Positions 5,986 to 31,584 of a stretch of DNA of 64,000 nt are shown here, in pieces. The stretch covers positions 18,170 through 82,169 of the forward strand of contig JANNFI010000089.1 in the NCBI GenBank assembly GCA_031379665.1. Direction: 5' to 3'. Positions within the stretch are counted from its first letter, which is position 1, and each line of letters starts with the position of its first letter. Source of the stretch: Ignavibacteria bacterium (GTDB lineage: Bacteria > Bacteroidota > Ignavibacteria > UBA10030 > SZUA-254). The position numbers and the translations under genes were made by a program. Below the pieces are notes generated by a model that was not told the origin of the DNA, ran no database searches, and was given only the letters and a program-made list of their open reading frames with translations.

Positions 5986-6533
5986 GGATCGTCGTCGGCA
6001 TCACCGGATCGTCGGGCGCGGTCTACGCGCAGGACTTCCTGAAGCGCTGTCCGGGAGACAAGTTTTTAATTGTAAGCAAGTGGGGAAAAGCCTTGTTGAA
6101 AGACGAGCTGAAGATCAGCGAGAAGGACCTTCAGCCGTACGTGAAAAAGCAGTTCGCGGACGACGACCTCACCGCGCCGCTCGCCTCGGGCACGAACAGA
6201 TTCGACGCGTATGTCATCCTCCCCTGTTCAACCTCAACGCTGGGAAAGATCGCCTCCGGCATCGGAGACTCACTCATCACCAGGACCGCAGCCGTCGCCC
6301 TCAAGGAACGGTACAAACTCGTCCTCTGCATCCGCGAAACGCCCCTCTCGACCATCTCGCTCGAGCAGTGCGCGGCGCTTTCCCGGTCCGGCGTCGTCAT
6401 CATGCCGGTTTCACCGCCCCTCTATTATAAGCCGGACACGGTACAGGAATACGTCGCCGGGTTCGTGGACAGGGTCCTGCACGTCATCGGCGCCGGCAGC
6501 GGCAGGGGCTGGCGTTCCGAAGAGTTGGAGTAA
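5982..6533 (+). CDS. ubiX: UbiX-family flavin prenyltransferase
   Basis: RIVVGITGSSGAVYA...ILPCSTSTLGKIASGIGDSLITRTAAVALKE is the canonical UbiX/Pad1 fold. A TTG start at 5982 overlaps the UbiA stop (5983-5985). The longer track ORF from 5832 would overlap ubiA. Confidence 0.85.
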   Translation: MRIVVGITGSSGAVYAQDFLKRCPGDKFLIVSKWGKALLKDELKISEKDLQPYVKKQFADDDLTAPLASGTNRFDAYVILPCSTSTLGKIASGIGDSLITRTAAVALKERYKLVLCIRETPLSTISLEQCAALSRSGVVIMPVSPPLYYKPDTVQEYVAGFVDRVLHVIGAGSGRGWRSEELE

Positions 6534-6538
6534 CCCCG

Positions 6539-8377: not shown

Positions 8378-8447
8378 TCTGGAAGTAACCGCGGCCCCAC
8401 CGGCCTCGAGTCTCGACAGTATTTCGAAAGAAGAAACAGACGCACAG

Positions 8448-10310
8448 ATGACATTCAATTTCCGCGACACCGCGCTCATCCCGATCTGGGAGAAGGTCCG
8501 AAGTGGCGAACGCCTCTCGATGGCCGACGGCCTGGCCCTCTACGCGACGCCGGACCTCATCTCGCTCGGAAAGATGGCGCATTTCGCCAAGCAGCAGAAG
8601 AGCGGCGACGCCGTCTATTTCGTCCTCAATCAAAAAATCGAGCACACCAACATCTGTGTCCTGTCGTGCAAGTTCTGCGACTTCGCCGTGAAGAAGGGGG
8701 ACGCCGACGCCTACGAGATGACGACCGAAGAGATCGTCTCGAAGCTCACCCCCGAGATCGCGGAGGTGCACATCACCGGCGGCATGCCCGCCGACTGGCC
8801 CTGGGACCGGTATCTCGACATTGTCCGTACAATCTGTAAAAGATTCCCGAACACCGACGTCAAGGCGTTCACCGCGGTCGAGATCGACTTCTTCCACAAG
8901 AAGTTCAAAATGCCGATCGAGGAGGTCCTCCGGCAGTTGAAAGAGGCGGGACTCAAGACGATGCCGGGCGGTGGCGCGGAAGTATTCTCCGAGCGGGTGC
9001 GGAAACTCCTCTTCAACCAGAAGATCGGTGCGAAGGGATGGTTCGGCGTGCACAAGGCGGCGCACCGCCTCGGCATCCCGACCAACAGCACACTCCTCTA
9101 CGGCCACATCGAGACGCTCGAAGAGCGGCTCGACCACATGATTCAGCTGCGCGAGGCGCAGGATGAGACGGGCGGATTCCTGACGTTCATCCCCCTCGCC
9201 TTCCAGCCGGGCGACACCGGCATCAAGCCGCGCGAACGGTTCACATCGGCCATCGACGACTTGAAGACCATCGCGATTTCCCGGTTGATGCTCGACAACT
9301 TCCCTCACATCAAAGCCTACTGGGTGATGCTCACCGAGGAGGTGGCCTCGGTCGCGCTCAACTTCGGCGCCGACGACATGGACGGCACGGTGGGCCAGGA
9401 ACGCATCGCGCACGACGCCGGCGCCACGAGCCCGATGATGCTCGCGAAGGACCAGATCATTCGCATCATCAGGGATGCCGGCAAGATACCGGTCGAGAGG
9501 GACGTCTATTATAACCCCCTCAGGGTACACGCCGACAACGTCATCGGTAAAATCCCGTACCTCAACTCACTCCCGTTTTACAGCGGTTTCGAGAAGGGGC
9601 CGTTTAAGATCCTCCCGATCGTCCCGCGGAGGATGGGGATGCTCGCGGCGGACGGACAGTTGGTGGCGGGTTTGTTTTCACTGATGGATTACTACCGGAA
9701 TGAGTCGACGCTCGAGCCGCTCGACTGGGGCATCGCCACGCGCGACCAGGTGAAGAGCGTGATGCTCTTCTCGAACCACGGCTGGGCCGGCCTCGACGGG
9801 AAGCGGATCGGCGTCACCGACGAGACCGCCACGTCCATCCAGCTTCTGCGACTCCTGCTCGGGAAGAAGTACAACGTGAATGCCGAATTCGTCCGCCTCC
9901 ACGCCGGCGTGAACAGTTATGCCGACTTCGACGCGGTGCTCCTGATCGGCGACCAGGCGCTCTACCATAACAGGCGCGGCCTCGAGGGATTCGAACTCGT
10001 CTACGACCTCGCGGCCGAGTGGTACGACTGGAAGAAGATGCCGTTCGTCTTCGCGGTGTGGGCGGTGAAGAAGGACCTCCCGGCCGCGACGAAGGCCGCC
10101 CTCTCGGCCACAATCGCGGAATCACTCCGCAGGACAGAGGGCCGCTACCGGGCGATCGGTGAACTCCACGGCAGGGTCCTGGGCCTTGACCCGTCCTACG
10201 TCGAGGAATACCTCGAGGGGTTCAATTACACTCTCGGCGACAGGGAAAAAGAATCAATGCGGGAATTCAGGAAACTCACCGCCGCAGTGAACCCGGGGGT
10301 GATGATATGA
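8448..10310 (+). CDS. Radical-SAM MqnE/MqnC-family enzyme fused to a C-terminal MqnA-like (chorismate dehydratase fold) domain
   Basis: The N-terminal ~360 aa carry the CxxxCxxC motif (CVLSCKFCDF) and resemble aminofutalosine or cyclic-DHFL synthases. The C-terminal ~250 aa start IGKIPYLNSLPFYSGF, which is MqnA/MqnD-fold like. Confidence 0.8.
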   Translation: MTFNFRDTALIPIWEKVRSGERLSMADGLALYATPDLISLGKMAHFAKQQKSGDAVYFVLNQKIEHTNICVLSCKFCDFAVKKGDADAYEMTTEEIVSKLTPEIAEVHITGGMPADWPWDRYLDIVRTICKRFPNTDVKAFTAVEIDFFHKKFKMPIEEVLRQLKEAGLKTMPGGGAEVFSERVRKLLFNQKIGAKGWFGVHKAAHRLGIPTNSTLLYGHIETLEERLDHMIQLREAQDETGGFLTFIPLAFQPGDTGIKPRERFTSAIDDLKTIAISRLMLDNFPHIKAYWVMLTEEVASVALNFGADDMDGTVGQERIAHDAGATSPMMLAKDQIIRIIRDAGKIPVERDVYYNPLRVHADNVIGKIPYLNSLPFYSGFEKGPFKILPIVPRRMGMLAADGQLVAGLFSLMDYYRNESTLEPLDWGIATRDQVKSVMLFSNHGWAGLDGKRIGVTDETATSIQLLRLLLGKKYNVNAEFVRLHAGVNSYADFDAVLLIGDQALYHNRRGLEGFELVYDLAAEWYDWKKMPFVFAVWAVKKDLPAATKAALSATIAESLRRTEGRYRAIGELHGRVLGLDPSYVEEYLEGFNYTLGDREKESMREFRKLTAAVNPGVMI

Positions 10311-11404
10311 TCCAGCTCTCTTCGGTCTACGAAAAAGTGCGGGCCGGCGGGCGCCTGACGCCTGATGAGGCGGTCGTCCTCCTGAAGCACGGCGAACTTC
10401 TCGAGCTCGGCGACCTCGCAAACGGCGTCCGCGCCGAGAAGAACCCCGTGCCGAGGGTGACATTCGTGGTCGACACCAACCCGAACTACACCAACGTTTG
10501 CAACATCGATTGCATCTTCTGCGCCTTCTACCGGCACCCGGGGGACGAAGGCGAATACACCTACAGTGTCGATCATATGATCGGCGAGTTCAAGCGGTCG
10601 GCCGCCAGCGGGGTCACCACCATCCTCCTGCAGGGGGGCGTGAACCCGGCCCTGCCGTTTTCGTACTACCTCGAAATGGTGCGCCGCACGGTGGTGGAAG
10701 TTCCCGAAGTCCATCCGCACTTCTTCTCCACATCGGAGATCATCGGGATGGCGAACGTTTCGGGGCTGAGCGTGCCGGAAGTGCTGAAACAGTTGTGGGA
10801 GGCTGGGTTGCGGACCATTCCCGGCGGCGGCGCCGAGATCCTCAACGACCGGGTCAAGAAGAAAATCAGCCACCTGAAGGGGAGCTCCGACGACTGGCTG
10901 ATGGTGATGCGCGAGGCGCACAGGCTGGGTTATCGCTCGACCGCGACGATGATGTACGGCCACCTCGAAACCGACGAGGAGCTCGTAGAGCACCTCGACC
11001 GGATCCGTCGGTTACAGGACGAGACGGGCGGGTTCACGGCGTTCGTCCCGTGGAGCTTCAAGCCGGGGAACACGCCGCTCGAGAAGATCATCCCACACTA
11101 CGCCACGCCGGTGCGCTACCTCCAGGTGCTGGCGATATCAAGAATGTATCTCGACAACTTCGACCATATCCAGGCGTCGTGGTTCTCGGAAGGAAAGAAG
11201 ACGGGACAGATCGCGCTCCACTTCGGCGCCGACGATTTCGGGGGGACGCTCTTCGAGGAAAACGTACACGCGGCGGCCAACTTCGTCAATAAGAGCAACA
11301 CCGAAGAGGTCGTGAACCTCATCCGCGAGTCGGGGTTCATTCCCGCGCAGCGGGACACGCTCTATAACATTCTGAGAGTCTTCGACCCCGCGGCGGCGGC
11401 GTAG
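10307..11404 (+). CDS. Radical-SAM MqnC/MqnE paralog (futalosine pathway)
   Basis: 365 aa with CNIDCIFCAF motif. Its ATG overlaps the upstream stop (ATGATATGA). It is a paralog of the N-domain of 8448..10310. Confidence 0.8.
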   Translation: MIQLSSVYEKVRAGGRLTPDEAVVLLKHGELLELGDLANGVRAEKNPVPRVTFVVDTNPNYTNVCNIDCIFCAFYRHPGDEGEYTYSVDHMIGEFKRSAASGVTTILLQGGVNPALPFSYYLEMVRRTVVEVPEVHPHFFSTSEIIGMANVSGLSVPEVLKQLWEAGLRTIPGGGAEILNDRVKKKISHLKGSSDDWLMVMREAHRLGYRSTATMMYGHLETDEELVEHLDRIRRLQDETGGFTAFVPWSFKPGNTPLEKIIPHYATPVRYLQVLAISRMYLDNFDHIQASWFSEGKKTGQIALHFGADDFGGTLFEENVHAAANFVNKSNTEEVVNLIRESGFIPAQRDTLYNILRVFDPAAAA

Positions 11405-12236: not shown

Positions 12237-13070
12237 TTACACCAGCCGGAATTCCTTCACCGCGGGCAGTCCGACCTTCTCGCTCGCCCTCCGGTAGAGC
12301 TCCTTCAGTCCCGCCTCTCCCCTTTCTCCCATGTCGATCGTCAACTCGTTGACATACATTTTCACGAACGTTTCGCCCTTTTGGGCGTCGATCCCGCGGC
12401 CCCACTCGAGCGCGTAAGGGATCGAGTCCTCCTGGTGCTTGTATCCGAAATCGATGCTGTCCCGGAGGCCGACAGACAGATCGTGCCCCATCTTTTCCCC
12501 GAGGTCCTTCCGGACCACATCGAGTCCGAGGGGAAGGGGAAGCCCGTTCGTCTCGTCGCGCCAGAGCTCGCCGAAGTCGAGGATTTTATGGTAGCCCTGT
12601 TCCTGGTAGGTAATTTGTCCTTCGTGGATCACGACGCCTGCGTCGATCCTCCCCTCGTCGATCATCGGCATCAACTGGTCGAATGGCCGGTCGACGTGCT
12701 CTATCCCTTCGGTGAACATCCTGAAGAGGAGGGTCGCGGTCGTCAGGGGTCCGGGCGTGCCGACGGTTTTTCCCTTCAGTTCGGCGAGGGTTGTGTATTT
12801 TTTCGAGATGAGGACCGGGCCGTACCCGTCTCCCATGCTTGCGCCGGTGCGCATGATCCAGTATTTGTCCTGGACGTAGGGAAAAGCGTGCGCCGAGATC
12901 GCCGTGACTTCCAGCTCCCCCTTCATCGCGCGGACGTTCAGCGATTGGATGTCCTCGAGCATATGCTCGATCCTGATCCCCTCGAGCTTGACCCTGCCGC
13001 TGGCGAGGCCGTAGAACATGAACGCGTCGTCGGGGTCCGGGCTGTGCCCCACGCGGATGATTTTTTCCAT
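12237..13070 (-). CDS. mqnD: MqnD (1,4-dihydroxy-6-naphthoate synthase), futalosine pathway
   Basis: 277 aa with the VGHSPDPDDAFMFYGL motif typical of MqnD/MqnA-fold proteins. Confidence 0.8.
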   Translation of the reverse strand: MEKIIRVGHSPDPDDAFMFYGLASGRVKLEGIRIEHMLEDIQSLNVRAMKGELEVTAISAHAFPYVQDKYWIMRTGASMGDGYGPVLISKKYTTLAELKGKTVGTPGPLTTATLLFRMFTEGIEHVDRPFDQLMPMIDEGRIDAGVVIHEGQITYQEQGYHKILDFGELWRDETNGLPLPLGLDVVRKDLGEKMGHDLSVGLRDSIDFGYKHQEDSIPYALEWGRGIDAQKGETFVKMYVNELTIDMGERGEAGLKELYRRASEKVGLPAVKEFRLV

Positions 13071-13148: not shown

Positions 13149-14687
13149 TCAGGCCTCTTCGGCCTGCTTCTTCTCGATCCGCTTGATGGTGAGGTAGAGT
13201 GCGATCGCCACGATCGTGATGATCAGCGTGGCCACTCCCAGCCCATACCGGCGGAAGTAGAACTCGTCGATGCTCTCCTGCCCCTGCACCGCCACCACGC
13301 CGGCCACGGCGATCCCCTGGTTCACCACTTCGGCAAATTTCGGCTCGTTGAAGGCGTGCACCGCTGTGCGCGACAACAGGCGCGATTGCCGGATTTCGCG
13401 GAGTCGGAACTTCGCCTCCGAGATTTCCATCCCCTTCTGCTCGGCGTTCGTCACGAGCGAATCGGCCCGCCGTTCAGAGCGCTCGAGCGAGTCGATCATC
13501 GTCCGCATCAGCGCGGCCGCCTGGTAGCCTTTCGGGTTGTCGGCCGGCGAGTGGCAGCGGGAGCAGACCGCCTCGTCGGAAGTCCCGAGGAGGGCGTCGG
13601 TGGCGTTGATGATCGCGTGGTTGCCATGGCACGTCTCACACTCCGGCAGCCCGAGTTCGTCGTACGCCTTCTTGTGGGGGCTCTCGGCGAACAGCGATGC
13701 GTTCATCGCGTGGCAGGTCCCGCACACTTTCGAGATGGAGGCCACTTCCGGCGGCGCCGCGCCGTGGTTGCCGTGACAGTCGTTGCACGAGGGGGCTCCG
13801 AGGTCGTGTTTTTCCAGAAGAGCTTTGCCGTGGACGCTGGTGCGGAACTCGGCGAGCTGGTCGGTCCCGATGGAATACTCCTTCATATACTCGGCGTTCG
13901 CGTGGCAGGTGCCGCAGGTGTTGGGCAGGTTGATCGCGTTGACGCTCGATTTCGCGTCGACGGCCCTGAGGATGTCGTGGCTGCCGTGGCAACTGGAGCA
14001 GACGGCCACATTTGAGTCTCCCTTCGCGAGCCTCATCCCGTGGACGCTCGTTTTGTATTTCTCCTCCTGGTCGATCGGCAGGGCCTGGTTGTACGACCGC
14101 ATGAAGACAGCGCTGGAGTGACAGGTCGCGCAGGTCTTGTTGACGTTCAGGTGATTGACGGGGGACCGGGGATCCTTGACGCTTTTGATGTCGTGGACGC
14201 CGTGGCAGGTGACGCACTGGACCATTTTCTCCACCCCCGAGACGGCCATTTTCCCGTGGACGCTGGCCGCGAGGTTTTCCATCTGGTTCAGACTGAGCGA
14301 CGACTTGAAGTTCGTCTTCATCACTTGCGCGTCGGAGTGGCACCGCTGGCAACTCTTCGAGATGTCGTCGCCCTTCGGGACGCCGATGAATCCGTGGTCG
14401 GCCGACATCGACTTTTCCTGGTCGTCGGAAGATGGATCACCGCCGTGGCACCCCGCGCACGATATCCCTTTCTGATAATGTATGTCGGCCGCGTATTTCA
14501 TCCCTACCGCTTCTCCAAGGGCCTTGTGGCAGGTGAGGCAATTGTCCGGCTTCGCGGTCGCGGTCCTGAACAGGGCGTCGGCGGATTGCGCGTGGAGCGC
14601 GCCGGCGAGGATGAGCTGGATAGCGGCGATGACGATCGGTAGCGACGGCGCGATGCGGATGACCGTTCGTGTTTTCATGAGAGCCAT
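13149..14687 (-). CDS. Undecahaem c-type cytochrome with C-terminal transmembrane anchor
   Basis: 11 CxxCH motifs counted (CLTCH, CAGCH, CQRCH, CVTCH, CATCH, CSSCH, CGTCH, CNDCH, CGTCH, CETCH, CSRCH). Signal peptide [37 protein letters not shown]-terminal helix [18 protein letters not shown]. The alternative ATG at 14678 overlaps the cyt b stop (ATGA). The track extension to 14969 is an antisense overlap. Confidence 0.8.
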
Positions 14688-15769
14688 CCGATGATGGTCA
14701 TGACGATGATGAACATGACGGCGATGAGGCCGCCGTAGGTGACGAGCCGGCTCTTCTTCCCCCTCGCGCTGCTCCTGTCCCAGAACGGCACCAGCGTCCA
14801 GAGCAGCCCGGCGAGGCCGAAGAACATGATGCCGAGCACCTCCCCTTCGAAGACGAGGATGTTCGCCGGAAGGTACTTGAGCGTCTGGAACATGAACATG
14901 AAGTACCACTCCGGTTTGATCCCCGCCGGGGCCGACGCGAAGGGGTCGGCCTTCACGCCGAGCTCCCACGGGAAGAGCACCGCGAGCACGGCCAGAAGGT
15001 TCAGGACGATGAGCCAGAGCAGGAGGTCCCGGTAGAGGAAGTTCGGGAAGAAGGGCATCTTCTTCATTGGGATGGGCGGCGCCGCGCCCGGGGCCGCGAC
15101 ATCGGAGCCCAATGGCTCGCTCATCCCCTGCCGCTGGACCAGAACGAGGTGGATCCCGAGGAGGACGGTGAAGAGGCCGGGAAAGACCGCCACGTGGAAC
15201 CCGAAGAACCTCGAGAGGGTCGCGCCGGTGACGTCGGGGCCGCTCCGGAGGAATTCCAGGATCGGCTCGCCGATGAACGGCACCACGCCGGCGATGTCGG
15301 TGCCCACCTTGGTGGCGAAGAACGCCAGCTCGTTCCAGGGAAGCAGGTATCCGCTGAACCCGAAGCCCATCCCGAGGAAGAGCATCAGCATCCCGGTGAG
15401 CCAGGTGATCTCGCGCGGTTTGCGGTAAGTCCGTTCGAAGAAGACGCTGAACATGTGGATCATCGCCGACAGGATGAAGAGGTTCGCCGCCCAGCTGTGG
15501 ATCGACCGGATCAGCCAGCCGAACTCCACCTTCGACATGATATATTGAATGCTCTCGTACGCCAGGTCCTCGCTGCCTTTATAGTAGAGGAGCAGCATGA
15601 TCCCGGTGACGACCTGGATGATGAAGAGGAAGAGCGTCACACCGCCGAAGTAGTACCAGATGGAGTGGCGGTGCACGGGCACGTACTTCTTCCCCATGAA
15701 GTTCACCAGGTCCTCGAGGTGGACCCGCTCGTTGACCCAGCCGTAGGCCTTTTCGAGGGCCTTCTTCAT
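14675..15769 (-). CDS. Cytochrome b of a bc/b6f-type complex
   Basis: [21 protein letters not shown]..., polytopic with conserved His-containing helices. Start ATG at 15769 overlaps the Rieske stop (ATGA). Confidence 0.85.
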
Positions 15770-16227
15770 ACAATTTTCGCGATCACGATTTCGTCCCCCT
15801 GGACGACGACCTTGTACGGTTCGAGCGGTCTTGGCGGCGGTCCCGCGACGTTCCGGCCGGTCAGGTCGTACTTGCCGTTGTGGCAGGCGCACCAGATCAT
15901 CCCGATCTCCTTGTTGAACTGAACGGTGCAGTCGAGGTGCGTGCAGGTGGCGTCGAACGCCTTGAGCTCGTCGTCGGCCGTGCGCACGAGGATCACCGGC
16001 TTGTTGCCGAACTTGATGATCTTTCCTGAATCGCGCGCAAGGTCGTCCTTCTTCCCCGCGTTCACCGACTTCACCTCCACCTCCGCCTGCACCGGCGGCT
16101 TCAGGTACGCGAGGATGGGGTAGAAGATCGAGGCGAAGAAGGCGAGAAGGCCGCCCGAGAGGACGTACCGTAAAAAGTTTCGTTTTCCCTCATCGGGCGC
16201 CGGCCGGGAGCTGGTTGCGTTCATCAT
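15766..16227 (-). CDS. Rieske 2Fe-2S protein
   Basis: CTHLDC...CACHNGKY Rieske boxes, N-terminal TM helix, 153 aa. Confidence 0.9.
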
Positions 16228-17875: not shown

Positions 17876-20125
17876 TCATCGACCGTCGCCCGGCGGCTTT
17901 TCGGGTTCCTGTTCCGTCCCGTCCCCGGCCGCGAGCTCTTCCCTCGTCCTGTCGGCCACGATCCGTTGCAGCTCGAGCGGATGGTCCTCTTCCATCTCTT
18001 CCTCGGTCAGCGTCCCCTTCCAGAACGCCACGTTCAGGGGATACACGTCCGGGTTGAAGATCACGAAGTAGAAGTGCCACACGACGATGGCGAGCGTCGC
18101 CAGCCACGCCTCGTAGTAGTGTATGGTTCGGGCCACGTCATATCCCATTTTCGTGAGGAGGCCGATGAACGTGTTGTCGAACCACATGACGACGCCTGTT
18201 ACGCCCATGATGAAGGTGCCCCATATGAGAGCCCAGTATTCGGCTTTCTCGATGTAGGAAAACCGGTCGAAGAGCGGGCGCTCCGCTTTGAGGCCGAGGT
18301 TGTACCTCACCATCGCGACGGCGTCCCTGGCGTCACGGAGCCGCGGGAGCATGTCGTTGATAAGGCGTCGCCCCGGATGGGTGAAGAGGACGTACCAGAC
18401 GTGGTAGAAGCTCGCCCCCAGCATCACCACCCCGGCGACGCGGTGGATGACGCTGCGGGTGTCGAACACCGATCCGCTCAGCGACCTGATCCACTGCACC
18501 CACCACGCCTCGGGGAAGCGGAGCATGAACCCGGTAACGACCAGCGTCGTGAAGCTCAAAAGGAGCGCTGCGTGCTGGAACCTTTCGTTGGCCCCCATCC
18601 TCGGGTAGAGCTCGTGGCTCGTATGGGGGTGGGGGATGAGGCCGCGCCGGACCATCAGTTTCCGGCGTGATTTCCTCACGAAGTCGAGCGCGTTGTGGAC
18701 GAGCATCCCCCCGATAATGACCACGATCAACGCGATGTAGGCCGTCGAGATCCAGTAGAGCGTCGGCTCTTCCGCGCGGGAGGTCTCGTCGACGTGGACC
18801 TTGCCGACGGTAAACCGTTCGTTCGCCCCGGGATGGCAGCTGCCGCAGGTCTTTGCGAGGTTCGCGTGGTTGATCGTGGAGGTGGAATCGTCCGACGACC
18901 TGATGTTGTGCGTCCCGTGGCAGCTCGCGCAGTTGGCGACCTCGATCGAGCCGCCGCGGATGGCGAGGCCGTGGTAGCTGTCGGAGAAAGTGCGGAAACG
19001 GTCGCTCGCGATGCCGTACTTGGTCGAGAGGGCGGCGGAGCTGTGGCACGGCGAGCAGACCTGTGCCGAGAGGTTTTTCTTCGAGACGGGCGAGTTCGGG
19101 TCGTCGTGCCTGAGAATCGTATGTTCCCCGTGGCAGTCGGTACAGGTCGGCGCGTCGACAACCCCCTTCCGCACGGCCTCGCCGTGTACGCTCCCGTTGT
19201 AAACGTTCGCGATCTCCTCGTGACACTTGGAGCAGGTTTCGGAGATGTTCATCTTGCTGACTTTCGCCGTCGGGTCGTACCCCTTCGCCATCTCGTGGCT
19301 GCCGTGGCAATCGACGCAGTTGGGCGCGTCACCGTTACCGTTGACCAGCGCCCGCCCGTGGACGCTCTGTTCGTACGCGGCGATGAAGCCCGCCGACGGC
19401 GAGGACCTTTCCCTGACATCGGGGTTGTCGAGGTGGCAACTCAGGCAGAGGTGTTCCTGCGCCAGCTTCAAACCGACGGCGTCGTCGGGGTGGCTCGCAG
19501 ACGTGATGTCGTGGTCGTGACAGCTTATGCATTCCGGCGCGCCCTTCACCCCTGCGGAAAACGCCACGCCGTGCGCCGATGCGGCAAACTGCCCGACCAC
19601 ATCGTCGTGGCACCGGCTGCAGCCGTCGGAAATGTTCGCGCGGTTGAACGGCGATTCCTTCGTGTCGGGTGAAATGACGTCGTGGGTACCGTGACAGTCC
19701 TTGCACGAGACCGTGGGTTCTTCCTTCGCGGCGATTGCCCTCGCCATCCCGGGATGGAACGAGTGTTTCAATTCGACGCCCCTGTGGCAGGTGAGGCACT
19801 CCACCGGCCGTATGGTTTTCTTGTGCGGGAGCTCGTTGATGTCGAAGCCCGCGTGACAGGCCGAACAGACCAGTTTCCGATGCGGCGACCTGTCGAGGAC
19901 TGCGGCGTCGACGTGGAGCGACACCGGCGACCCGTTTCTCTCGGTCGCGAGCGATGCGTCGGAGTGGCAGGCCAGGCAGTCGTCCTTCGACTGGGCCCTC
20001 GCGGGACCGTTCAACATCCAGAACGCGGCCAGGAGGAACGCCACGGCCGCGAGGGCCACCACGAGCATCAGCCGCGCGAGCGGACTGCGTGCGGTGTATC
20101 CGGCGGATTGATCGTTGGTGTTCAT
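17876..20125 (-). CDS. 13-haem cytochrome c fused to a C-terminal dihaem b-type membrane domain (CbcL-like architecture)
   Basis: 13 CxxCH in the N-terminal ~450 aa. The C-terminal ~280 aa has 4-5 TM helices with conserved His pairs (HRVAGV...YHVWY, HYYEAW...WHFYF), resembling FdnI/HydC Ni_hydr_CYTB domains. Confidence 0.8.
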   Translation of the reverse strand: MNTNDQSAGYTARSPLARLMLVVALAAVAFLLAAFWMLNGPARAQSKDDCLACHSDASLATERNGSPVSLHVDAAVLDRSPHRKLVCSACHAGFDINELPHKKTIRPVECLTCHRGVELKHSFHPGMARAIAAKEEPTVSCKDCHGTHDVISPDTKESPFNRANISDGCSRCHDDVVGQFAASAHGVAFSAGVKGAPECISCHDHDITSASHPDDAVGLKLAQEHLCLSCHLDNPDVRERSSPSAGFIAAYEQSVHGRALVNGNGDAPNCVDCHGSHEMAKGYDPTAKVSKMNISETCSKCHEEIANVYNGSVHGEAVRKGVVDAPTCTDCHGEHTILRHDDPNSPVSKKNLSAQVCSPCHSSAALSTKYGIASDRFRTFSDSYHGLAIRGGSIEVANCASCHGTHNIRSSDDSTSTINHANLAKTCGSCHPGANERFTVGKVHVDETSRAEEPTLYWISTAYIALIVVIIGGMLVHNALDFVRKSRRKLMVRRGLIPHPHTSHELYPRMGANERFQHAALLLSFTTLVVTGFMLRFPEAWWVQWIRSLSGSVFDTRSVIHRVAGVVMLGASFYHVWYVLFTHPGRRLINDMLPRLRDARDAVAMVRYNLGLKAERPLFDRFSYIEKAEYWALIWGTFIMGVTGVVMWFDNTFIGLLTKMGYDVARTIHYYEAWLATLAIVVWHFYFVIFNPDVYPLNVAFWKGTLTEEEMEEDHPLELQRIVADRTREELAAGDGTEQEPEKPPGDGR

Positions 20126-20132: not shown

Positions 20133-20972
20133 TCAGCGCGCGAGTTTCACGTCGTTGATCGCCTCGACCACGAGGGGAAAATACCGGTCGAGGGCGCATT
20201 CGACGTCGTCGCGCAGGTTGCAGCTTCCGCCCGGAGACTGGTGCACGCAGACCGAACAGACTTTTTCCCTCAGCCGTGCGACGAATGGCCCGATGTCGTC
20301 GCCTCCGGTGGTGAGCACGATGTCGATGATCTCAGGCAGGTAACGGTTGATGGCACACTCGTCAAAGGTGGAGGTGACGCAAAGCCCCGTCGGGGTGCGG
20401 TCGAGGCATTTCGCGCACACCCTCTGCCGGATCTCCCGGAGATACAGTTCTTCGTGCGACATGGAGTTCTCCCCTTCCATTTCCCAGTTTGTGGTTTCGG
20501 CAGGCTTCCGCGCGGTCCGTCCGGGCTTCACGACCATCACCGGTATGGAGGCGCCTCGCAGGATCTCCCCGGCGATTCCACCGGTGCGGACAGGATCACC
20601 CGCCGGCTCCCCTCCGGCCGGAAGCGGGAGCACGATGATGTCCATCCCTTCCTCCCGCGCGAACCTCAGGATCTCCGCGGCGGGCACCCCCCTGCGGACG
20701 ATACAGGCAAGCCGGGAATTCGGCCTGACCTTCTTCAGGAAGAACTCTTCCATCGCGTGGTATTTTTTCCGGAGATCCGGATCATCCTCCGCCGGTGATG
20801 CGTGATTTCCCGGGGCGAACCTCTCTTCGGGCGGGGTGATGACGTGAATCAGGTATATCTGTGATTTTTTTCCGTCGGAGAGGGCCAGGGCGGCATCGAG
20901 CGCGCATAATGAGGTGTCGGTGAGGTCGACCGGTACCAGAATCTTGTCGATATGTGCGGCTTTCTTCGACAT
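20133..20972 (-). CDS. Universal stress protein domain fused to a duplicated 4-Cys C-terminal module
   Basis: UspA-like N-terminus (KILVPVDLTDTSLCALDAALAL...VLPLPAGG). C-terminal repeats are VCAKCLDRTPTGLC..ECAINRYLP and VCSVCVHQSPGGSC..ECALDRYFP. Lies 7 bp upstream of the CbcL-like gene. Confidence 0.7.
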   Translation of the reverse strand: MSKKAAHIDKILVPVDLTDTSLCALDAALALSDGKKSQIYLIHVITPPEERFAPGNHASPAEDDPDLRKKYHAMEEFFLKKVRPNSRLACIVRRGVPAAEILRFAREEGMDIIVLPLPAGGEPAGDPVRTGGIAGEILRGASIPVMVVKPGRTARKPAETTNWEMEGENSMSHEELYLREIRQRVCAKCLDRTPTGLCVTSTFDECAINRYLPEIIDIVLTTGGDDIGPFVARLREKVCSVCVHQSPGGSCNLRDDVECALDRYFPLVVEAINDVKLAR

Positions 20973-21033
20973 ACCTGTATGAATAATAGACATCCGCGGA
21001 CACACGGGGTATGACCTCTGAAAGGTTCCGATA

Positions 21034-21045
21034 TGATTTTTATCA
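21034..21045. promoter_or_regulatory. Candidate FNR/CRP-family operator (TGAT-TTTT-ATCA) in the usp/respiratory-operon promoter
   Basis: A perfect TGATnnnnATCA palindrome sits about 60-75 bp upstream of the USP start, in the gap between the Crp/Fnr gene end and the USP gene. Confidence 0.35.
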
Positions 21046-21139
21046 GGTTCCGGGATTGATCTTGCGAATCGGAGGGAATTTCAAGGCGCCGGCGAGGGAG
21101 CGTGGCGGCTGACGGATGTCGTGTGGAGGGTTGCCGGGG

Positions 21140-21853
21140 CTAGTCGGGAATGCGTGCCGCCTCTCGAAGGGCGCGCAGGTTCACAATGCTGATCTTTTTC
21201 CCCTCGAGAACGATCGTCCCCTCCCTCGCGAGTTCGGAGAGCACTCGGATGACCGTCTCCGACACCGTGCCGATGTAGCTGGCGATTTCTTCCCTGGTGA
21301 GCCTGCTGCGCAGCGTGTGCCCGTCGTCCTCGGTGCCGTAGAATTCCTTCAGCATCAGGAGCGTCTCGGCCAGACGCTCCCTCACCTGTTTCTGGGCGAG
21401 TGACACCTGCTTCTGTTCGGCCCTGGCGAGGTCCTGCGTCAGTTGACGCATGATGCCTGCGGTGAGCGCGGGGTTTTCTTTCAACAATAGTTGGAAGGTC
21501 TGGCGTGGAATGAAGCAGATCGACGCGTCCTCCAGCACGGTGGCGGTGAGTTCGTACGGCGTCCCGCTCACGAGCGCCCGGTACCCGACCACGTCCCCCT
21601 CGCGCGCCAGGCGGACGATCTGTTCACGCCCCGCCTCGCCGACTTTCGTCAGCTTGACCTTGCCCTGATTGAGGCAATAGAGTCCCGACGGGTAATCGCC
21701 CTCGTAGAAGAGGACCTGGCCGCTCCTGTGGAAGTTGCATCCTTTGTGGAGTTGGAGTTTTCCGAGTTCCTCCTGGGAGAGGACGCTGAACATCGAATGG
21801 AGCCGCGGCAGGCAGGTCTCGCAGTGCGGTATCTCGAAAAGATTTTTCATCAC
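21140..21853 (-). CDS. Crp/Fnr-family transcriptional regulator with N-terminal Cys cluster
   Basis: cNMP-binding domain plus C-terminal HTH (EIASYIGTVSETVIRVLSELAREG). The N-terminal HCETC...C pattern is reminiscent of Fnr. Confidence 0.8.
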   Translation of the reverse strand: MMKNLFEIPHCETCLPRLHSMFSVLSQEELGKLQLHKGCNFHRSGQVLFYEGDYPSGLYCLNQGKVKLTKVGEAGREQIVRLAREGDVVGYRALVSGTPYELTATVLEDASICFIPRQTFQLLLKENPALTAGIMRQLTQDLARAEQKQVSLAQKQVRERLAETLLMLKEFYGTEDDGHTLRSRLTREEIASYIGTVSETVIRVLSELAREGTIVLEGKKISIVNLRALREAARIPD

Positions 21854-21854
21854 G

Positions 21855-22790
21855 CTATAAAATCTCGGAGATCTCGTGAAGGGTGAAGCGCGTGCGTTTC
21901 CCCTTGAGCGCGACGTCGTTGAACGTTTCCCTTGGGCGCACCCGCCCGAAGACCTCGCGCAGCGCCGCGTCGGAAATGAGCATCGACGTGCCGGTCTGTT
22001 TGTTGGCCTCCTCGATTCGCTCGGCCACGTTCACCGCATCGCCAATGACGGCCATTTTTTCCATGTTGGCCATGCCAATGGTGCCGATCACCACAGGGCC
22101 GTAATGGATCCCGATGCGGACACGGAACTTCCGCCGGTACATCGCCTGCAGGTAGGGGTTCAGCGAATCGACCTCCCAGAGCATCTCGAGTCCGGCGCGG
22201 ATCGCGCGGTAGACCGGATCAGGAGCGTCGTCGATCCCGAAGAGCGCCATGATGCCGTCGCCGATGTAGTCGTTGATCCGGCCGCCGTGAGAGTCGATCA
22301 CCCGCCCCATTGTGATGAAGTACCTCCGGAGCGCGTGGATGACATCGTACGCCGGGAGCGACTCCGCGAACGATGTGTAATCGCCGATGTCCGCGAAGAG
22401 GATGGCCAGGTGTTTCTCCTCTCCGACCGACCCTAGCTTGAGACCATGGCCCGTCTGGTCGGCGAGCTGAATGTCGAGCGTGTCGAGGACCGTACGCCGG
22501 ACGGTGACGTCGCCGTTGACCCTGGTCTGACAGGCGAGGCGCACCTGGGGATCGAAGTTGAGCCTGCCCGCAATTTTCTCTTCGGCGCCCTGGCGCGGCG
22601 AGCAACGGTCGAGGCCGGCGATTACCACGACACGGCAGGTGGAGCACCTGGCCTTCCCGCCGCAAACGTGGACGTGGGGGATCCCGGAATCGAGGGAGGC
22701 CTCGAGGATGGTGGTCTCTCCGGATGCCTCCATCTCTTTCTCGTCGGGGAGCATCAAGATCTTGTTCATCGCCTCACCGTCAGTTGCCAT
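21855..22790 (-). CDS. 2Fe-2S ferredoxin domain fused to class III adenylate/guanylate cyclase catalytic domain
   Basis: N-terminus has CGGKARCSTCRV...C (plant-type ferredoxin). The C-terminal CHD has FADIGDYTSF...RIGIHYGPVVIGTIG...GDAVNVAERIE. An alternative start at 22769 (MNKILMLPDEK) also fits. Confidence 0.8.
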   Translation of the reverse strand: MATDGEAMNKILMLPDEKEMEASGETTILEASLDSGIPHVHVCGGKARCSTCRVVVIAGLDRCSPRQGAEEKIAGRLNFDPQVRLACQTRVNGDVTVRRTVLDTLDIQLADQTGHGLKLGSVGEEKHLAILFADIGDYTSFAESLPAYDVIHALRRYFITMGRVIDSHGGRINDYIGDGIMALFGIDDAPDPVYRAIRAGLEMLWEVDSLNPYLQAMYRRKFRVRIGIHYGPVVIGTIGMANMEKMAVIGDAVNVAERIEEANKQTGTSMLISDAALREVFGRVRPRETFNDVALKGKRTRFTLHEISEIL

Positions 22791-23562: not shown

Positions 23563-23931
23563 CTATTGTAGCAGTACTGTTCCATTAAAGCGTGAATAAT
23601 GACAACTGGTTACAGGATCTGTGGGGACCAGGGCCCCATTGGCATGAGCCAGCGTGTTCCGTGCGACGACGCCGCGTAAACTACAATGGTAAAGTTTCTT
23701 CCGGAGCGCACCAAGACATGTTTCGATATCCCGGAGACTTTTTCTGAGGGTAATCTGGGCAAATGCCAGAGCTACGAACTGACTGCGCCGCGAGAACCGT
23801 TTGACGTAACGATCCCCCTGATATCGTCTGACGCACCGGCGGAACTCCGGCATCGGGAGGAAGTCCCTGAGTTGAGCGAAGACCGTTTTTCCCCTGTGTT
23901 CATCTACCCATCCTAACCCGAGGAGAAACAT
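23563..23931 (-). mobile_element. IS4-family (DUF4372-type) transposase N-terminal fragment, truncated remnant
   Basis: MFLLGLGWVDEHRGKTVFAQLRDFLPMPEFRRCVRRYQGDRYVKRFSRRSQFVALAFAQITLRKSLRDIETCLGA matches the N-terminal region of IS4/ISPg1-like transposases. The ORF stops after 122 aa and the DDE catalytic part is absent. Confidence 0.6.
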
Positions 23932-24205
23932 CAGAATAGGTGGGGAATTGACACTGTCAAAGTTCTAATCTATTGCTCTCTTTTAATGTCGTAACGCGGT
24001 CACGTACAATGTGTTACAAGGATTTATGAAAAGTTTTTTGAGACAGTATTGCTATTGTATCTCAAGATAATCGTTCCTACCTTACGGTATGTTACAACAT
24101 TCAGCGATTTACATATCGGAAGTTCGGGACGCACGTGAACGATTATTAAGGTAGGCGTCAAGCTTCAATTCTCGCTTAGAAACTCGGTGGAGATTTAATC
24201 AAGCG

Positions 24206-24709
24206 ATGCGAATAACAAAAGTACTTGGCATTCGCATATTTGGGGTCGTTATATTTTGCATCCTAATGCTTGATGTAATTTTTCTCACGTTGGAAAATAG
24301 AGAACTTAAAACCGCTCTCGATGCCGTTGCCCAGCGCGACGAAAGCCCTCAGCTTCCCGGGATGGTTATACCTACTTTTGGTGCTTTGACTCTGGGAAGA
24401 AACGCAGTCACACTTAATCTTGCTGATTCAGGTAAGCATTATCTTCTTTTTTTACTCTCCGCAGACTGTCACGCGTGTGAATCCACGTTAGGCTCATGGA
24501 ACTCCTTTAAGACCGAGGGTAACGTCGAGATACTGGGTGTATCGCTCAGTAATTACGAGGAGACCGTCCGATATGTGGGTTCTAATAGTGTCGAGTTTGA
24601 TGTCTTGACGCTGTCAGATCCGAATTTTATCCCCACAATCAAAATTAGAAGTATCCCATTAACCATCCTCATAAACCCGAGAGGGGTCGTCGTTAAATCG
24701 TGGGGGTGA
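24206..24709 (+). CDS. Membrane-anchored thioredoxin-fold (TlpA/ResA-like) protein with CHAC active-site motif
   Basis: N-terminal TM helix. YLLFLLSADCHACES is a CxxC motif in a thioredoxin-like context, and IPLTILINPRGVVV is a cis-Pro region. Confidence 0.55.
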   Translation: MRITKVLGIRIFGVVIFCILMLDVIFLTLENRELKTALDAVAQRDESPQLPGMVIPTFGALTLGRNAVTLNLADSGKHYLLFLLSADCHACESTLGSWNSFKTEGNVEILGVSLSNYEETVRYVGSNSVEFDVLTLSDPNFIPTIKIRSIPLTILINPRGVVVKSWG

Positions 24710-24825
24710 ATACTGTCACCAAGCGATCTACAAGATATTCGATCCCTCCTCATATCGGAGAATATTTCAGATAATTCCAAGCCATAAATAATTATCAACT
24801 CAATCAACCAACCTAGGAGGGAGTC

Positions 24826-25047
24826 ATGAATGCTTTTCCGAAATCCAGCCTGCTTTATGTTATTGGATTCGTCATTGCCATGGCGGGTTTAATTCAGCTA
24901 AATGTTACCGTAGCCAAAGCGGACCTCCCTCCATGTCCCACAGTGTGTTCTTGTGATGACCCGAGGCCGGGTGGGTGTGCGTGGAACTGTAACGGACAAA
25001 TCATCTCAAATTGTGGGGCATACTACAGTTTCTGCTGTCATTCTTGA
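24826..25047 (+). CDS. Secreted cysteine-rich small peptide (10 Cys in the C-terminal 42 aa)
   Basis: AGGAGG lies 7 nt upstream of the ATG. Signal peptide ends ...VTVAKA, followed by DLPPCPTVCSCDDPRPGGCAWNCNGQIISNCGAYYSFCCHS. Confidence 0.55.
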   Translation: MNAFPKSSLLYVIGFVIAMAGLIQLNVTVAKADLPPCPTVCSCDDPRPGGCAWNCNGQIISNCGAYYSFCCHS

Positions 25048-25179
25048 TGTTCCAGGGGAGTGAGGGTCACGCTCTCTCGTCCTGAATGAACAGCGGATTG
25101 CTGTCCTTTGACAAACATCACCCCTAAGTTATCATTAAAAATAAAAGATAGTGCATTGATAACATAGGGGTGAAATATT

Positions 25180-25938
25180 ATGATGAAAGTATGCTTGGGA
25201 CTAGCATTATTCTTACTCGGCTGTGTGCCGTGGGGATTTGATAAATCGGATGCTATTGTTGCACGCTCAATGACATCATGGTCTGATCGCGATTGTTTGA
25301 CAATCATGCTTTCAGCGATGCAGCATAATTATTACGATCCTGAGAAACCGCCGATTTTGGCTTGTGTGACACCGTACACACCGAGAGTTGTCATGGCATT
25401 GAACCGAATGTCTCAGCTTAAACATCGATGGTCAGATGAGACACTCCAGCACCACGCGGATGCGCTCCTCAAAGACGCGTCAGGGCTGTATGCGGATTGG
25501 GAGCATAATGCTCAGATCTATGATTCAAAGTTAAATCGACTTCGGGATCCAACACAGATGGATTCGATAACATTTCTCGTTACCCTTTCGAATCGGACAT
25601 GGCCGTGCGCTCCGCCGGTACTACTTACGTTGGACAACCTGACTGGTGACAAAACCCCACAGTTCATGCAGTTGTCAGACTGGCCGTGCGAGGTTCCCGA
25701 TCTCACTAATATTGAGTCGAATATATTTTTGATCAACGATCGCGGTGATACCGTGAGACCGAGGTATGTCTGGGGACGGAAAGATGACCAACTCAGAACC
25801 GACGAGACGTTACTAGTGATGTTTCCACTTCGGTCTGAAAATACACATTTATTCGAAAATTCAACTCAGATAACCATCGCATTCGCCGAGTTCACACCTA
25901 AACTCCAGCTGACGTTTCCTTTGGCCTCCTTGCGATAA
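25180..25938 (+). CDS. Lipoprotein, hypothetical (island cargo)
   Basis: 252-aa ORF with MMKVCLGLALFLLGC lipobox. No recognised domain. Confidence 0.5.
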   Translation: MMKVCLGLALFLLGCVPWGFDKSDAIVARSMTSWSDRDCLTIMLSAMQHNYYDPEKPPILACVTPYTPRVVMALNRMSQLKHRWSDETLQHHADALLKDASGLYADWEHNAQIYDSKLNRLRDPTQMDSITFLVTLSNRTWPCAPPVLLTLDNLTGDKTPQFMQLSDWPCEVPDLTNIESNIFLINDRGDTVRPRYVWGRKDDQLRTDETLLVMFPLRSENTHLFENSTQITIAFAEFTPKLQLTFPLASLR

Positions 25939-26213
25939 CTGTAGGTCAACCCCATCAGATTAGGCAAAAGCATTGGCCCAACAATTGTTGGACATTTTTT
26001 TATTATAGAACATTTCAATAGTTATCTCTGCTCTTTGGGGTCGTAGATACTAATTTCCGAGGTGGATCACTTTGAGGGGAGCCGGTCATTCATCGAGACG
26101 CCGCTAATTTTTCAACAAAGCCATTGCGCTTCTCACCGAATATCCCTTTACACCTATGTCGATTCGTTACCAATCACCAGCATTGCTCCCAATAAAATCT
26201 GACCGGAACGGAG

Positions 26214-26481: not shown

Positions 26482-28056
26482 CTATTTCATCAGGTTCATT
26501 TTTCGCACCATCTGGTGGGACCCGCTCCGCATCCTGCAAAAATAGATGCCGGAGGGGAGCGCCGAAGCGTCGAAGGTGACGCTGAACCGGCCCGTCCCCG
26601 GGTTGCCGTCCACCAGGGTTGCGACCTCGGCGCCGAGCGTGTCGTACACCCTGATGTTCACCGGTCCGCCGTCGGACAGAAACGAAATGACGGTCGAGGG
26701 ATTGAACGGGTTGGGATAGTTCTGGCTGAGGCTGATGGTCTCAGGGAGGCCGTCCGCGGCGGCCGCGGTCGGATCGACGATCGGGAGCACCTGGAAATTC
26801 TGCAGCAGGACCGCGTCGAGGACATCCTGCGGCACGCCGAACCACTGCCGGAGCACCGATGCGTACACCTGACGGAAGTCGTATTGCATCTCCAGGTTGT
26901 CGTTGTTCGAGACCAGATCGGGAATCACCGGATTCGCGCCCGTGATGCCGTGGTTGATCGCTTTGCCAAAGAGGATGACGGGCGCCGCCTCGCCGTGGTC
27001 CGTCCCGAAGCTGGAGTTCGACTTGATCCTGCGACCGAACTCAGAGAAGGTCATCCCGATCACGCGGTGGTCCGCCCTCAGCAATCGGAGGTCCTCCTGG
27101 AACGCGAAGATCGCCTCTGAGAGTTTGCCGAGGAGGTCGGCGTGGTTTCCGAACTCCGTCCCGAGCGTGCCGTCGACCTGGCCGGCGTGGGTGTCGAATC
27201 CCCCGATGTTGGTGACGTAAATGCGTGTCTTCAGCCCGCCCGCGATGAGTTTGGCGACGATCTTGAGCTGGTCGGCGAGCCTGTTCGACCCGGACGGCGG
27301 ATAGACCGGCGACTGCGACGGCACTCTTTCTGCGGCCGCCTTGATCCTGTCGGTGTAGACCGACGTCTGATTTACGACCTGCCGGATGAACGTCAGCTCG
27401 TGGCCGGCGGGCGTGTCTGGGGCGGTATCGACGCCGCCGGTGAGCAGCTGGTAGAACGACGTGGGGCTGGTGATGGCCATTCCGAGCGAGCCGTTTGGTC
27501 CCTGGAGCCCCGTCGAGACCACCGAACCGATCTGGATCGCCAGTGGGTCAGGCATGATTTCATTCGGATACCCGATGGGAAAATCGGCGTAGGTCTGGTC
27601 CAGCCACCTGCCGAGCCATCCCGAGTTCAACGTCTCGTCAGCGTCCGAACCCGTCAACCAGATGTCCATGCCGCGGAAATGCGATTTGTTCGGGTTCGGA
27701 TAACTCACTCCCTGGACGATGTTCAGCCGGCCGTCGGTGTAGAGGTTCTGCAGCCCCGACATCGAGGGGTGGAGCCCCGTCTCGTCGGTGAGCTTCAGTA
27801 CCTTGTTCTCGGGGATCACGATGTTTCCACGGGCGTTCATGAGGGCAGGGTACTGGTCGAGCGGGATCACCGTGTTGAGCCCGTCGTTGCCGCCGTTGAG
27901 CTGGATCAATACGAGGACTCGGTCGCTCGGCGTTCCCGCGCTGATCAGGCTCTCGAGGACCTTTGACCGCCCGTAGGTTTTGATGTTGAAGCCCCCGAGG
28001 AGGAACGGGAGGAGGGCGACGGGGGCGGAATTCCTGATGAATGACCTTCTTCTCAT
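26482..28056 (-). CDS. DUF1501-family (alkaline-phosphatase-like superfamily) protein with Tat-like signal and T9SS C-terminal sorting domain (copy A)
   Basis: MRRRSFIRNSAPVALLPFLLGGF is a twin-arginine-like motif. The C-terminus NYPNPFNPSTVISF...VYDTLGAEVATLVDG...GIYFCRM...KMNLMK matches the Por_Secre_tail pattern. Confidence 0.75.
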   Translation of the reverse strand: MRRRSFIRNSAPVALLPFLLGGFNIKTYGRSKVLESLISAGTPSDRVLVLIQLNGGNDGLNTVIPLDQYPALMNARGNIVIPENKVLKLTDETGLHPSMSGLQNLYTDGRLNIVQGVSYPNPNKSHFRGMDIWLTGSDADETLNSGWLGRWLDQTYADFPIGYPNEIMPDPLAIQIGSVVSTGLQGPNGSLGMAITSPTSFYQLLTGGVDTAPDTPAGHELTFIRQVVNQTSVYTDRIKAAAERVPSQSPVYPPSGSNRLADQLKIVAKLIAGGLKTRIYVTNIGGFDTHAGQVDGTLGTEFGNHADLLGKLSEAIFAFQEDLRLLRADHRVIGMTFSEFGRRIKSNSSFGTDHGEAAPVILFGKAINHGITGANPVIPDLVSNNDNLEMQYDFRQVYASVLRQWFGVPQDVLDAVLLQNFQVLPIVDPTAAAADGLPETISLSQNYPNPFNPSTVISFLSDGGPVNIRVYDTLGAEVATLVDGNPGTGRFSVTFDASALPSGIYFCRMRSGSHQMVRKMNLMK

Positions 28057-28063
28057 GGCATCC

Positions 28064-29767: not shown

Positions 29768-29969
29768 CGTTTGATCCTTATTTCGTGCGGTCTTCATAGG
29801 TAGGGAAAACCCGCCGGCGAAACAAGATTTCGCGGAGAGAGTGTGTCGGGGATCACTTTAAAACAGGAGGGGAACGCCACCTTCACGAACGAAGATGCGC
29901 GCCGTCACCTTTTTCGAAGGGGAGCGAGCAAGAAAAAAATCGTCCCGGTGGGGGGATTGTCGGGGTGGG

Positions 29970-31577: not shown

Positions 31578-31584
31578 GTCGTCC

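Follow-up and report, generated by a model that had tools for sequence, protein, structure and literature searches.

Geobacter has three known gateways, CbcL, ImcH and CbcBA, for emptying its quinol pool to minerals and electrodes, each serving a different window of potential. CbcL of G. sulfurreducens (GSU0274) is a protein of 619 amino acids (aa) with nine CxxCH motifs at residues 34-257 and six transmembrane (TM) helices at positions 285, 351, 399, 477, 511 and 589, the last of which spans 589-611 (PMC9129911; PMC6295460 Table S2). Its nine haems have been shown spectroscopically to be bis-His, its midpoint potential is about -194 mV, and it reduces PpcA (PMC9129911); it is needed for acceptors at or below -0.1 V (PMC5322298). 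The 2018 survey of Zhong & Shi, which selected by BLAST similarity to CbcL, CX2CH motifs and TM helices, recovered CbcL/MtrH/MtoC homologues with 3-23 motifs from 15 phyla (PMC6295460). Here we examine a gene in a 64-kb stretch of DNA from an Ignavibacteria bacterium (contig JANNFI010000089.1), the whole of which we refer to as the window. The gene encodes a fusion of a 13-haem cytochrome c with a dihaem cytochrome b, hereafter the 13-haem fusion. This protein is a member of the CbcL/MtrH/MtoC superfamily in a large uncharacterised sister branch, with a b domain more like that of E. coli FdnI and without the sixth helix.

The open reading frame (ORF) begins with ATG and coincides with a public gene call; an identical protein is encoded by one contig of a Logan assembly and by one from NCBI. 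We counted 13 CxxCH motifs (at residues 50, 87, 110, 141, 169, 199, 227, 270, 298, 328, 357, 399 and 427), which use all 26 cysteines of the protein; this agrees with the first-pass annotation, made from the sequence alone, which had placed 13 such sites in a periplasmic N-terminal domain. That domain follows a signal sequence. The count is real and not a product of chance: 20,000 shuffles of the protein gave a mean of 0.05 CxxCH and a maximum of 2, and no CxxCH occurs in the remaining five frames of the gene. Over six frames the window contains 31 CxxCH, 30 of which lie in the 13-haem fusion and two downstream genes. From our reading of the sequence, the signal is predicted to be cleaved between the A and Q of PARAQS.

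Among 60 close homologues (56-85% identical to the 13-haem fusion), every one of the 13 motifs is invariant throughout except the third, which falls short only at C110, kept in at least 90%. The same alignment shows exactly 13 further invariant His in the haem domain (H82, 101, 121, 124, 148, 185, 256, 277, 314, 335, 385, 406 and 444), enough for bis-His ligation of all 13 haems. Pfam matches within the domain are to Cytochrome_C7, c3_2 and Paired_CXXCH. Foldseek returned no significant match for the multihaem part of an AlphaFold2 model, as is expected of haem-free models, and we make no claim for its fold. The mean predicted local distance difference test score (pLDDT) of this haem-free model is 74, with values of 80-95 in the haem domain and 60-78 in the membrane part.

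For the C-terminal domain, the earlier reading was of a cytochrome b of the FdnI/HydC type with paired His on its TM helices; a Pfam scan had been proposed, and alignment to a non-haem transporter family was named as the outcome that would speak against it. The scan matched PF01292 (Ni_hydr_CYTB) to residues 511-692 with 63.8 bits, relative to a gathering threshold of 30.1. Compared with the PDB, a family profile of b domains (20 diverse sequences) matched E. coli FdnI (1KQF chain C) at E = 3e-12 over nearly its full length; FdnI was reached by this family profile only, as a single-sequence phmmer search of the PDB gave no match. Foldseek against the PDB likewise gave FdnI (1kqf_C) as its sole significant match (probability 1.00, target-normalised template-modelling score 0.80, root-mean-square deviation 3.8 Å). 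These three results rule out a transporter or other non-haem identity and establish the C-terminal domain as a true dihaem cytochrome b of the FdnI/Ni_hydr_CYTB kind.

Five hydrophobic helices lie past the haem domain. The loop that follows the first of these, the linker helix TM0, is strongly basic (seven K + R), which fits a cytoplasmic location; the other four are placed by the AlphaFold model and hydropathy at residues 512-536, 551-581, 624-652 and 659-690. No hydrophobic segment was found after residue 693, where a tail of 56 residues remains. Of the membrane helices, helix I carries H518, helix II has two His (H561 and H575), and so has helix IV (H669 and H684). Four of these, H518, H561, H669 and H684, are invariant in the 20 diverse and 60 close homologues aligned, which bears out the paired His of the earlier reading; the profile alignment pairs them with H18, H57, H155 and H169 of FdnI, the haem ligands in 1KQF (one on helix I, one on helix II and two on helix IV). 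Loop charges, read by the positive-inside rule, agree with the FdnI topology, on which model H518 and H684 would bind the b haem on the cytoplasmic side and H561 and H669 the one on the periplasmic side. One cytoplasmic loop is nearly invariant in the 60-sequence alignment (F622, Y624, E626, K627, E629 and Y630); the corresponding loop in FdnI contributes to the quinone site.

We then compared the 13-haem fusion with G. sulfurreducens CbcL itself (P0369, 619 aa), a sequence retrieved indirectly, via a hand-stitched frameshifted orthologue from locus L081. BLASTP aligned the two proteins collinearly over 582 residues (227 bits, E = 3e-69, 27% identity), from haem 5 of the fusion and haem 1 of CbcL to just short of the sixth CbcL helix. 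Profile-profile alignment by hhalign, with 60 sequences of the 13-haem clade on one side and 18 CbcL orthologues on the other, gave a probability of 100% and E = 6.5e-65 over 522 columns, and also stopped before CbcL residues 589-611. Judged by these alignments, the homology to CbcL that the first-pass annotation had proposed is secure. Significant similarity over the full length to CbcL, MtrH or MtoC, CX2CH motifs and a TM b domain with conserved His, by which members of the CbcL/MtrH/MtoC superfamily are recognised, are all present in the 13-haem fusion.

Sequence comparison nevertheless indicates that the 13-haem fusion is not an orthologue of CbcL and belongs to a sister clade. Its b domain is 25% identical to that of CbcL, as against 75-87% among CbcL orthologues, and members of the published CbcL cluster are 57.6-100% identical (PMC6295460); identities of 27% overall and 25% in the b domain thus fall below the level of an orthologue. 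An alignment of 141 trimmed b-domain sequences separated into two groups. The first consists of b domains that are 30-88% identical to the 13-haem fusion and 19-28% identical to CbcL, in proteins with a post-haem tail of about 300 residues, whereas those in the second are 43-100% identical to CbcL and 25-31% to the 13-haem fusion, with a tail of 337-363 residues that includes an extra helix. All but five of the 138 homologues tabulated in PMC6295460 have a predicted sixth C-terminal TM helix, which is absent from the fusion. PF01292 gave no match in G. sulfurreducens CbcL at E-values up to 0.01, while the 13-haem fusion scores far above the cut-off. More broadly, PF01292 is recorded in almost no true CbcL orthologue (P0279-P0398) and always in the 13-haem clade. 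Because PF01292 divides the clades in this way, domain-based annotation pipelines will label them differently.

The first-pass annotation had further described the protein as an expanded variant of its family, on the grounds that Geobacter CbcL has fewer c haems. CbcL does have fewer, namely nine (PMC9129911), and with four more the 13-haem fusion is expanded in the arithmetical sense. It is not shown to be expanded in the evolutionary sense, as the alignments do not decide between a gain here and a loss in Geobacter. The protein is not an orthologue of CbcL, and 13 haems are usual in the sister clade. A search of related genomes for 13-haem versions, which had been suggested, found 13 motifs in 115 of the 120 nearest clusters in the database (at 55-100% identity), which derive from metagenome-assembled genomes (MAGs) of Ignavibacteria, Bacteroidota, Gemmatimonadota and Acidobacteriota. 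Thirteen is the standard count of this clade and not exceptional. Across 150 representatives at 50% clustering, the count ranges from 3 to 22, with a mode of 11 (n = 62) followed by 13 (n = 13) and 9 (n = 9). As variable haem number in the family has already been published, the count is of low surprise.

The haem domain is modular: a spacing of 28-30-28/29-42/43 recurs, and the stretch with haems 1-4 is similar to that with haems 9-12 (E = 1e-7). CbcL haems 1-9 are set opposite haems 5-13 of the fusion by BLASTP, hhalign and pairwise MAFFT alike, and in the same alignments the common 11-haem forms lack haems 6-7. A ten-sequence MAFFT alignment gave CbcL a haem register different from the pairwise placement. 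Given a domain built of repeats and these conflicting registers, only the last five haems can be placed with confidence. The idea that CbcL is a demonstrably truncated form was dropped because of this ambiguity in register.

Of the candidates scored, more than 5,000 are homologues of the 13-haem fusion at E ≤ 1e-5; at E ≤ 1e-3 there are 6,021 cluster representatives. In a collection of one genome per species, 260 stretches encode a relative; the best 80 of these 260 are all from MAGs, assigned to Ignavibacteria, Bacteroidota, Chlorobiaceae, Gemmatimonadota, Acidobacteriota and a few others. The nearest relative, at 83% identity, is in an Ignavibacteria MAG, and the type-IX secretion sorting domains encoded elsewhere in the window are consistent with that group. 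Annotations of the homologues at source are generic, an example being 'cytochrome b/b6 domain-containing protein'.

The 13-haem fusion is one of a run of closely spaced genes, all on the minus strand, separated by 7, 58 and 33 nucleotides (nt) or overlapping (Table 1). The universal stress protein gene immediately upstream is probably co-transcribed with it. Only three genes in the window encode multihaem proteins: the 13-haem fusion, the ImcH-type cytochrome and the 11-haem cytochrome. ImcH is defined by three N-terminal TM helices, a NapC/NirT-like region and seven haem motifs, the first of which is CxxxCH (PMC4251993). Each of these features was found in the gene next downstream, which has CxxxCH at residue 129 (CGETCH) followed by six CxxCH at 154, 203, 312, 429, 449 and 489; the motif positions match those of GSU3259 and of the Ignavibacteria ImcH homologues (PMC6295460 Table S3). 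The cytochrome b of the operon scores 201 bits, below the cut-off of 290, on the model for ExtP, a protein of the Geobacter selenite/tellurite operon.

Table 1. Parts of the 13-haem fusion and genes adjoining it in the window (TM, transmembrane)
Feature	Position (nt)	Strand	Evidence and remarks
CbcL-like fusion of 13-haem cytochrome c and dihaem cytochrome b, whole gene, 749 aa	17876..20125	-	ORF, motif count, Pfam, CbcL homology
N-terminal signal sequence or anchor, residues 1-44; hydrophobic ~15-38, then PARA and QS	19994..20125	-	Hydropathy segment 12-43; AlphaFold helix 15-38
Periplasmic multihaem domain, residues 45-450; 13 CxxCH and 13 further invariant His	18776..19993	-	Motifs, alignment, Pfam, pLDDT 80-95
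Linker helix TM0, residues ~453-493, periplasm to cytoplasm; conserved M474, H477, N478, D481, F482	18647..18769	-	Hydropathy; AlphaFold helix 454-493; invariant columns
FdnI-type four-helix dihaem cytochrome b domain, residues 511-692	18050..18595	-	PF01292, profile alignment to 1kqf_C, Foldseek, invariant columns
Acidic cytoplasmic tail, residues 693-749; 15 D+E	17879..18049	-	Hydropathy, composition
Crp-family regulator	21140-21853	-	
Universal stress protein	20133-21005	-	PF00582; stop 7 nt before ATG of 13-haem fusion
ImcH-type inner-membrane cytochrome, 499 aa, 3 TM helices	16261-17760	-	Motifs, TM count, NapC/NirT Pfam match; next gene, 58 nt downstream of fusion
Rieske protein	15766-16227	-	Pfam/NCBIfam
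Fused cytochrome b6/subunit IV	14675-15769	-	Pfam/NCBIfam
11-haem cytochrome c with C-terminal membrane anchor	13149-14678	-	Motif and TM counts

The synteny of this operon is conserved in many Ignavibacteria/Bacteroidota genomes and across phyla. Of the 58 related loci whose downstream sequence is long enough, 35 carry a same-strand ImcH-like gene within 6 kb downstream of the fusion; in 13 of these it is directly adjacent, as it is in the window. Rieske and cytochrome b genes follow in 21 of the 58 loci and are absent from the other 37. imcH and cbcL are unlinked in Geobacter, and no description of this synteny was found in the literature searched. In a Geobacterales-like MAG (L081, 2635-6524), a nine-haem CbcL orthologue, broken by several frameshifts that are probably long-read assembly errors, is followed by a 482-aa ImcH-like gene whose product is 39% identical to the ImcH-like protein of the window; CbcL-ImcH adjacency may also occur within Desulfuromonadota.

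In half of the sampled loci (29 of 58), two further genes, here called the split pair, lie between the fusion and imcH; they encode a multihaem cytochrome of 672 aa, anchored at its C-terminus, and a cytochrome b of 342 aa (for example at 10355-13355 of L001; also in L002-L005, L010, L016 and others). The split pair has the same two functional parts as the fusion but as two polypeptides rather than one, and its b subunit belongs to the CbcL clade, being 46% identical to the CbcL b domain and 28% identical to that of the 13-haem fusion. It is absent from the window, with clean boundaries between 17817 and 17876 and flanks that are 83-88% identical to L001 at the DNA level; as blastn of the operon against L001 also produced many off-diagonal matches rich in guanine and cytosine (GC), only the two long collinear blocks were used. 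Acidobacteriaceae loci have the split pair upstream of the fusion and imcH directly downstream.

A near-complete futalosine-type menaquinone set flanks the operon. An MqnD/MqnA-type gene lies at 12237-13070 (-), 78 nt after the 11-haem gene, and 5128-11404 (+) encodes a UbiA prenyltransferase, a UbiX-like flavoprotein, a UbiD-like decarboxylase, a radical-SAM/VitK2_biosynth fusion (MqnE/C-MqnA) and a second radical-SAM protein of MqnC/E type. These flanking synthesis genes make menaquinone the plausible quinone.

Upstream of the operon, 20133-22790 (-) encodes three proteins: an adenylate/guanylate cyclase with a fused 2Fe-2S ferredoxin domain, a Crp/cNMP-binding regulator, and the universal stress protein, which has a Cys-rich C-terminal extension. 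Together these genes could form a control module that senses redox state and works through cyclic nucleotides. The three closest relatives (L001-L003) retain the cyclase, the Crp regulator and a YceI-like gene, and L004 has Crp and YceI without the cyclase. Scans with promoter and terminator consensus sequences performed no better than on shuffles; the consensus set does not extend to Bacteroidota-type promoters, and these scans were not used. Elsewhere in the window, GC content, otherwise about 0.60-0.63, falls to 0.45 in the bin at 24-26 kb, beside a 122-aa ORF (23563-23931, -) that has by eye the look of a transposase fragment, and 23563-26000 may be a small inserted or foreign segment. A DUF1800 and DUF1501 gene pair is present in two tandem copies at 26482-33291 (-), and the DUF1501 proteins have type-IX secretion C-terminal sorting domains.

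On balance, we think that the 13-haem fusion probably links the menaquinone pool to the periplasm as an electron gate in the inner membrane, with the build of CbcL, and oxidises menaquinol. Sequence and model show that a Sec signal exports the N-terminal domain, in which 13 covalent, bis-His, low-spin haems form a chain; one linker helix brings the polypeptide back to the cytoplasm, and the four-helix FdnI-type bundle can hold two b haems stacked across the membrane. By analogy with FdnI, whose site loop is strongly conserved in the fusion, the quinone site would lie on the cytoplasmic (N) side beside the inner b haem. Menaquinol would be oxidised there, with release of protons at the N side, and two electrons would cross via the b haems and leave along the 13-haem chain for periplasmic or extracellular acceptors. 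Such an export route would add nothing to the proton-motive force but could reach low-potential acceptors, and the neighbouring ImcH-type and Rieske/cytochrome b modules would then offer the same pool of quinol alternative outlets that conserve energy. Oxidation of quinol on the N side has been proposed for both CbcL and CbcBA (bioRxiv 10.1101/2023.05.03.539133). The direction of flow cannot be read from sequence; the one shown genetically for CbcL seems most likely.

Several points weigh against a menaquinol-oxidising role. The 13-haem clade has no experimentally characterised member, and with a b domain only 25% identical to that of CbcL and no sixth helix, the transfer of function from CbcL is an extrapolation. 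In FdnI itself this fold runs the opposite way, with periplasmic electrons reducing quinone at the N side, and the CbcL relative MtoC occurs in Fe(II) oxidisers (PMC6295460). Neither a periplasmic shuttle nor an outer-membrane conduit nor a terminal reductase is encoded in the 64-kb window, and the TM part of the haem-free model is of moderate confidence (pLDDT 60-78).

The same protein could work in reverse, as a periplasmic-cytochrome:menaquinone reductase like FdnI and as proposed for MtoC, and we hold this to be a serious if somewhat unlikely possibility. Low-potential periplasmic or extracellular electrons would then enter the 13-haem chain and reduce menaquinone on the cytoplasmic side with proton uptake, a half-loop that would make proton-motive force. 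This role is suggested by a b domain that is nearer to the canonical FdnI/Ni_hydr_CYTB than that of CbcL is (63.8 bits on PF01292 versus no match), by the conservation of FdnI topology and ligands, and by the view that the CbcL/MtrH/MtoC family works both ways (PMC6295460). The co-encoded quinol oxidisers (ImcH-like and Rieske/cytochrome b) would also make sense if the fusion fills the pool that they empty. However, CbcL, the only genetically characterised homologue, is a quinol oxidase; no donor-side enzyme (hydrogenase, formate dehydrogenase, or an Fe(II) oxidase such as Cyc2 or MtoAB) is encoded nearby; and cultured Ignavibacteria are organoheterotrophs. It is also conceivable, though we judge it unlikely, that the operon constitutes a complete all-cytochrome redox loop, in which the 13-haem fusion reduces menaquinone at the cytoplasmic face with gain of proton-motive force, as FdnI does, with electrons from donors of low potential in the periplasm or outside the cell, the ImcH-like and Rieske/cytochrome b proteins re-oxidise the quinol at the periplasmic face, and electrons pass via the 11-haem protein to an acceptor of higher potential. 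If this were true, energy would be conserved from a purely periplasm-to-periplasm flow of electrons without a cytoplasmic dehydrogenase. In many relatives the components of such a loop also include the split CbcL-type pair.

Two other roles were weighed and given little credence. The tight gene spacing, together with a synteny that crosses phyla and puts an ImcH-like gene within 6 kb in most of the sampled loci, would suit a supercomplex of the fusion with the ImcH-like, Rieske/cytochrome b and 11-haem proteins, in which the fusion is a structural or electron-storage subunit and its haems act as a relay or capacitor. We regard this as decidedly unlikely, since the invariance of the quinone-site loop and of all b-haem ligands argues for catalytic use, many homologues are without Rieske/cytochrome b genes or without ImcH-like neighbours, and CbcL and ImcH each work alone in Geobacter, where imcH is monocistronic (PMC4251993). 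The remaining alternative, that the protein anchors a classical periplasmic dehydrogenase (formate dehydrogenase, hydrogenase or thiosulfate reductase) with the multihaem domain replacing the iron-sulfur subunit, appears highly improbable. It draws on weak matches to TIGR01583 (formate dehydrogenase gamma) and TIGR02125 (hydrogenase cytochrome b), and on the name 'cytochrome b subunit of formate dehydrogenase' that relatives bear in some sources, but the NCBIfam scores are far under their cut-offs (44 versus 116 and 30 versus 122, respectively), and neither the window nor the conserved neighbourhood contains a gene for a molybdopterin or NiFe catalytic subunit or for the partners of a periplasmic dehydrogenase (FdnGH, NiFe hydrogenase).

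The sister branch to which the 13-haem fusion belongs has over 5,000 proteins in the database and is present in at least 260 species-level genomes, in Ignavibacteria, Bacteroidota, Gemmatimonadota and Acidobacteriota; its genes habitually lie beside an ImcH homologue and often beside those of a Rieske/cytochrome b complex. Should these proteins prove to be quinol:cytochrome gates, phyla common in soil and sediment would have, within one operon, an apparatus like that of Geobacter for electron export (or import) by several exits, with a bearing on the prediction of extracellular electron transfer from metagenomes. To a specialist the protein itself is unsurprising, and the conserved operon with ImcH-type and Rieske/cytochrome b genes is of more interest than the haem count.

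Relative to FdnI, the 13-haem fusion has the same four-helix fold, all four haem His, the N-in/C-in topology and the conserved cytoplasmic quinone-site loop; it is, however, only 15-17% identical to FdnI, and where FdnI docks on FdnH/FdnG it is fused to a further helix and a 13-haem domain. With the CbcL/MtrH/MtoC set of Zhong & Shi it shares a motif number inside the published range and an overlap in phyla (Ignavibacteriae, Bacteroidetes, Gemmatimonadetes and Acidobacteria), but all 138 entries of that set are of CbcL-clade architecture and none has 13 motifs. CbcL has the same order of parts, from signal sequence and periplasmic multihaem c domain through linker helix to FdnI-like dihaem b domain, and shares with the fusion the spacing of the last five haems (29-28-43-28, compared with 28-30-29-42-28 in the fusion). 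The two also agree in distal ligands that are all His and in the four conserved b-haem His. CbcL differs in having nine haems, 619 aa and a sixth C-terminal TM helix, where the fusion has 13 haems, 749 aa and five helices followed by an acidic tail. Unlike CbcL of G. sulfurreducens, the 13-haem fusion occurs in MAGs of the Ignavibacteria/Bacteroidota type, where it adjoins imcH-like and Rieske/cytochrome b genes.

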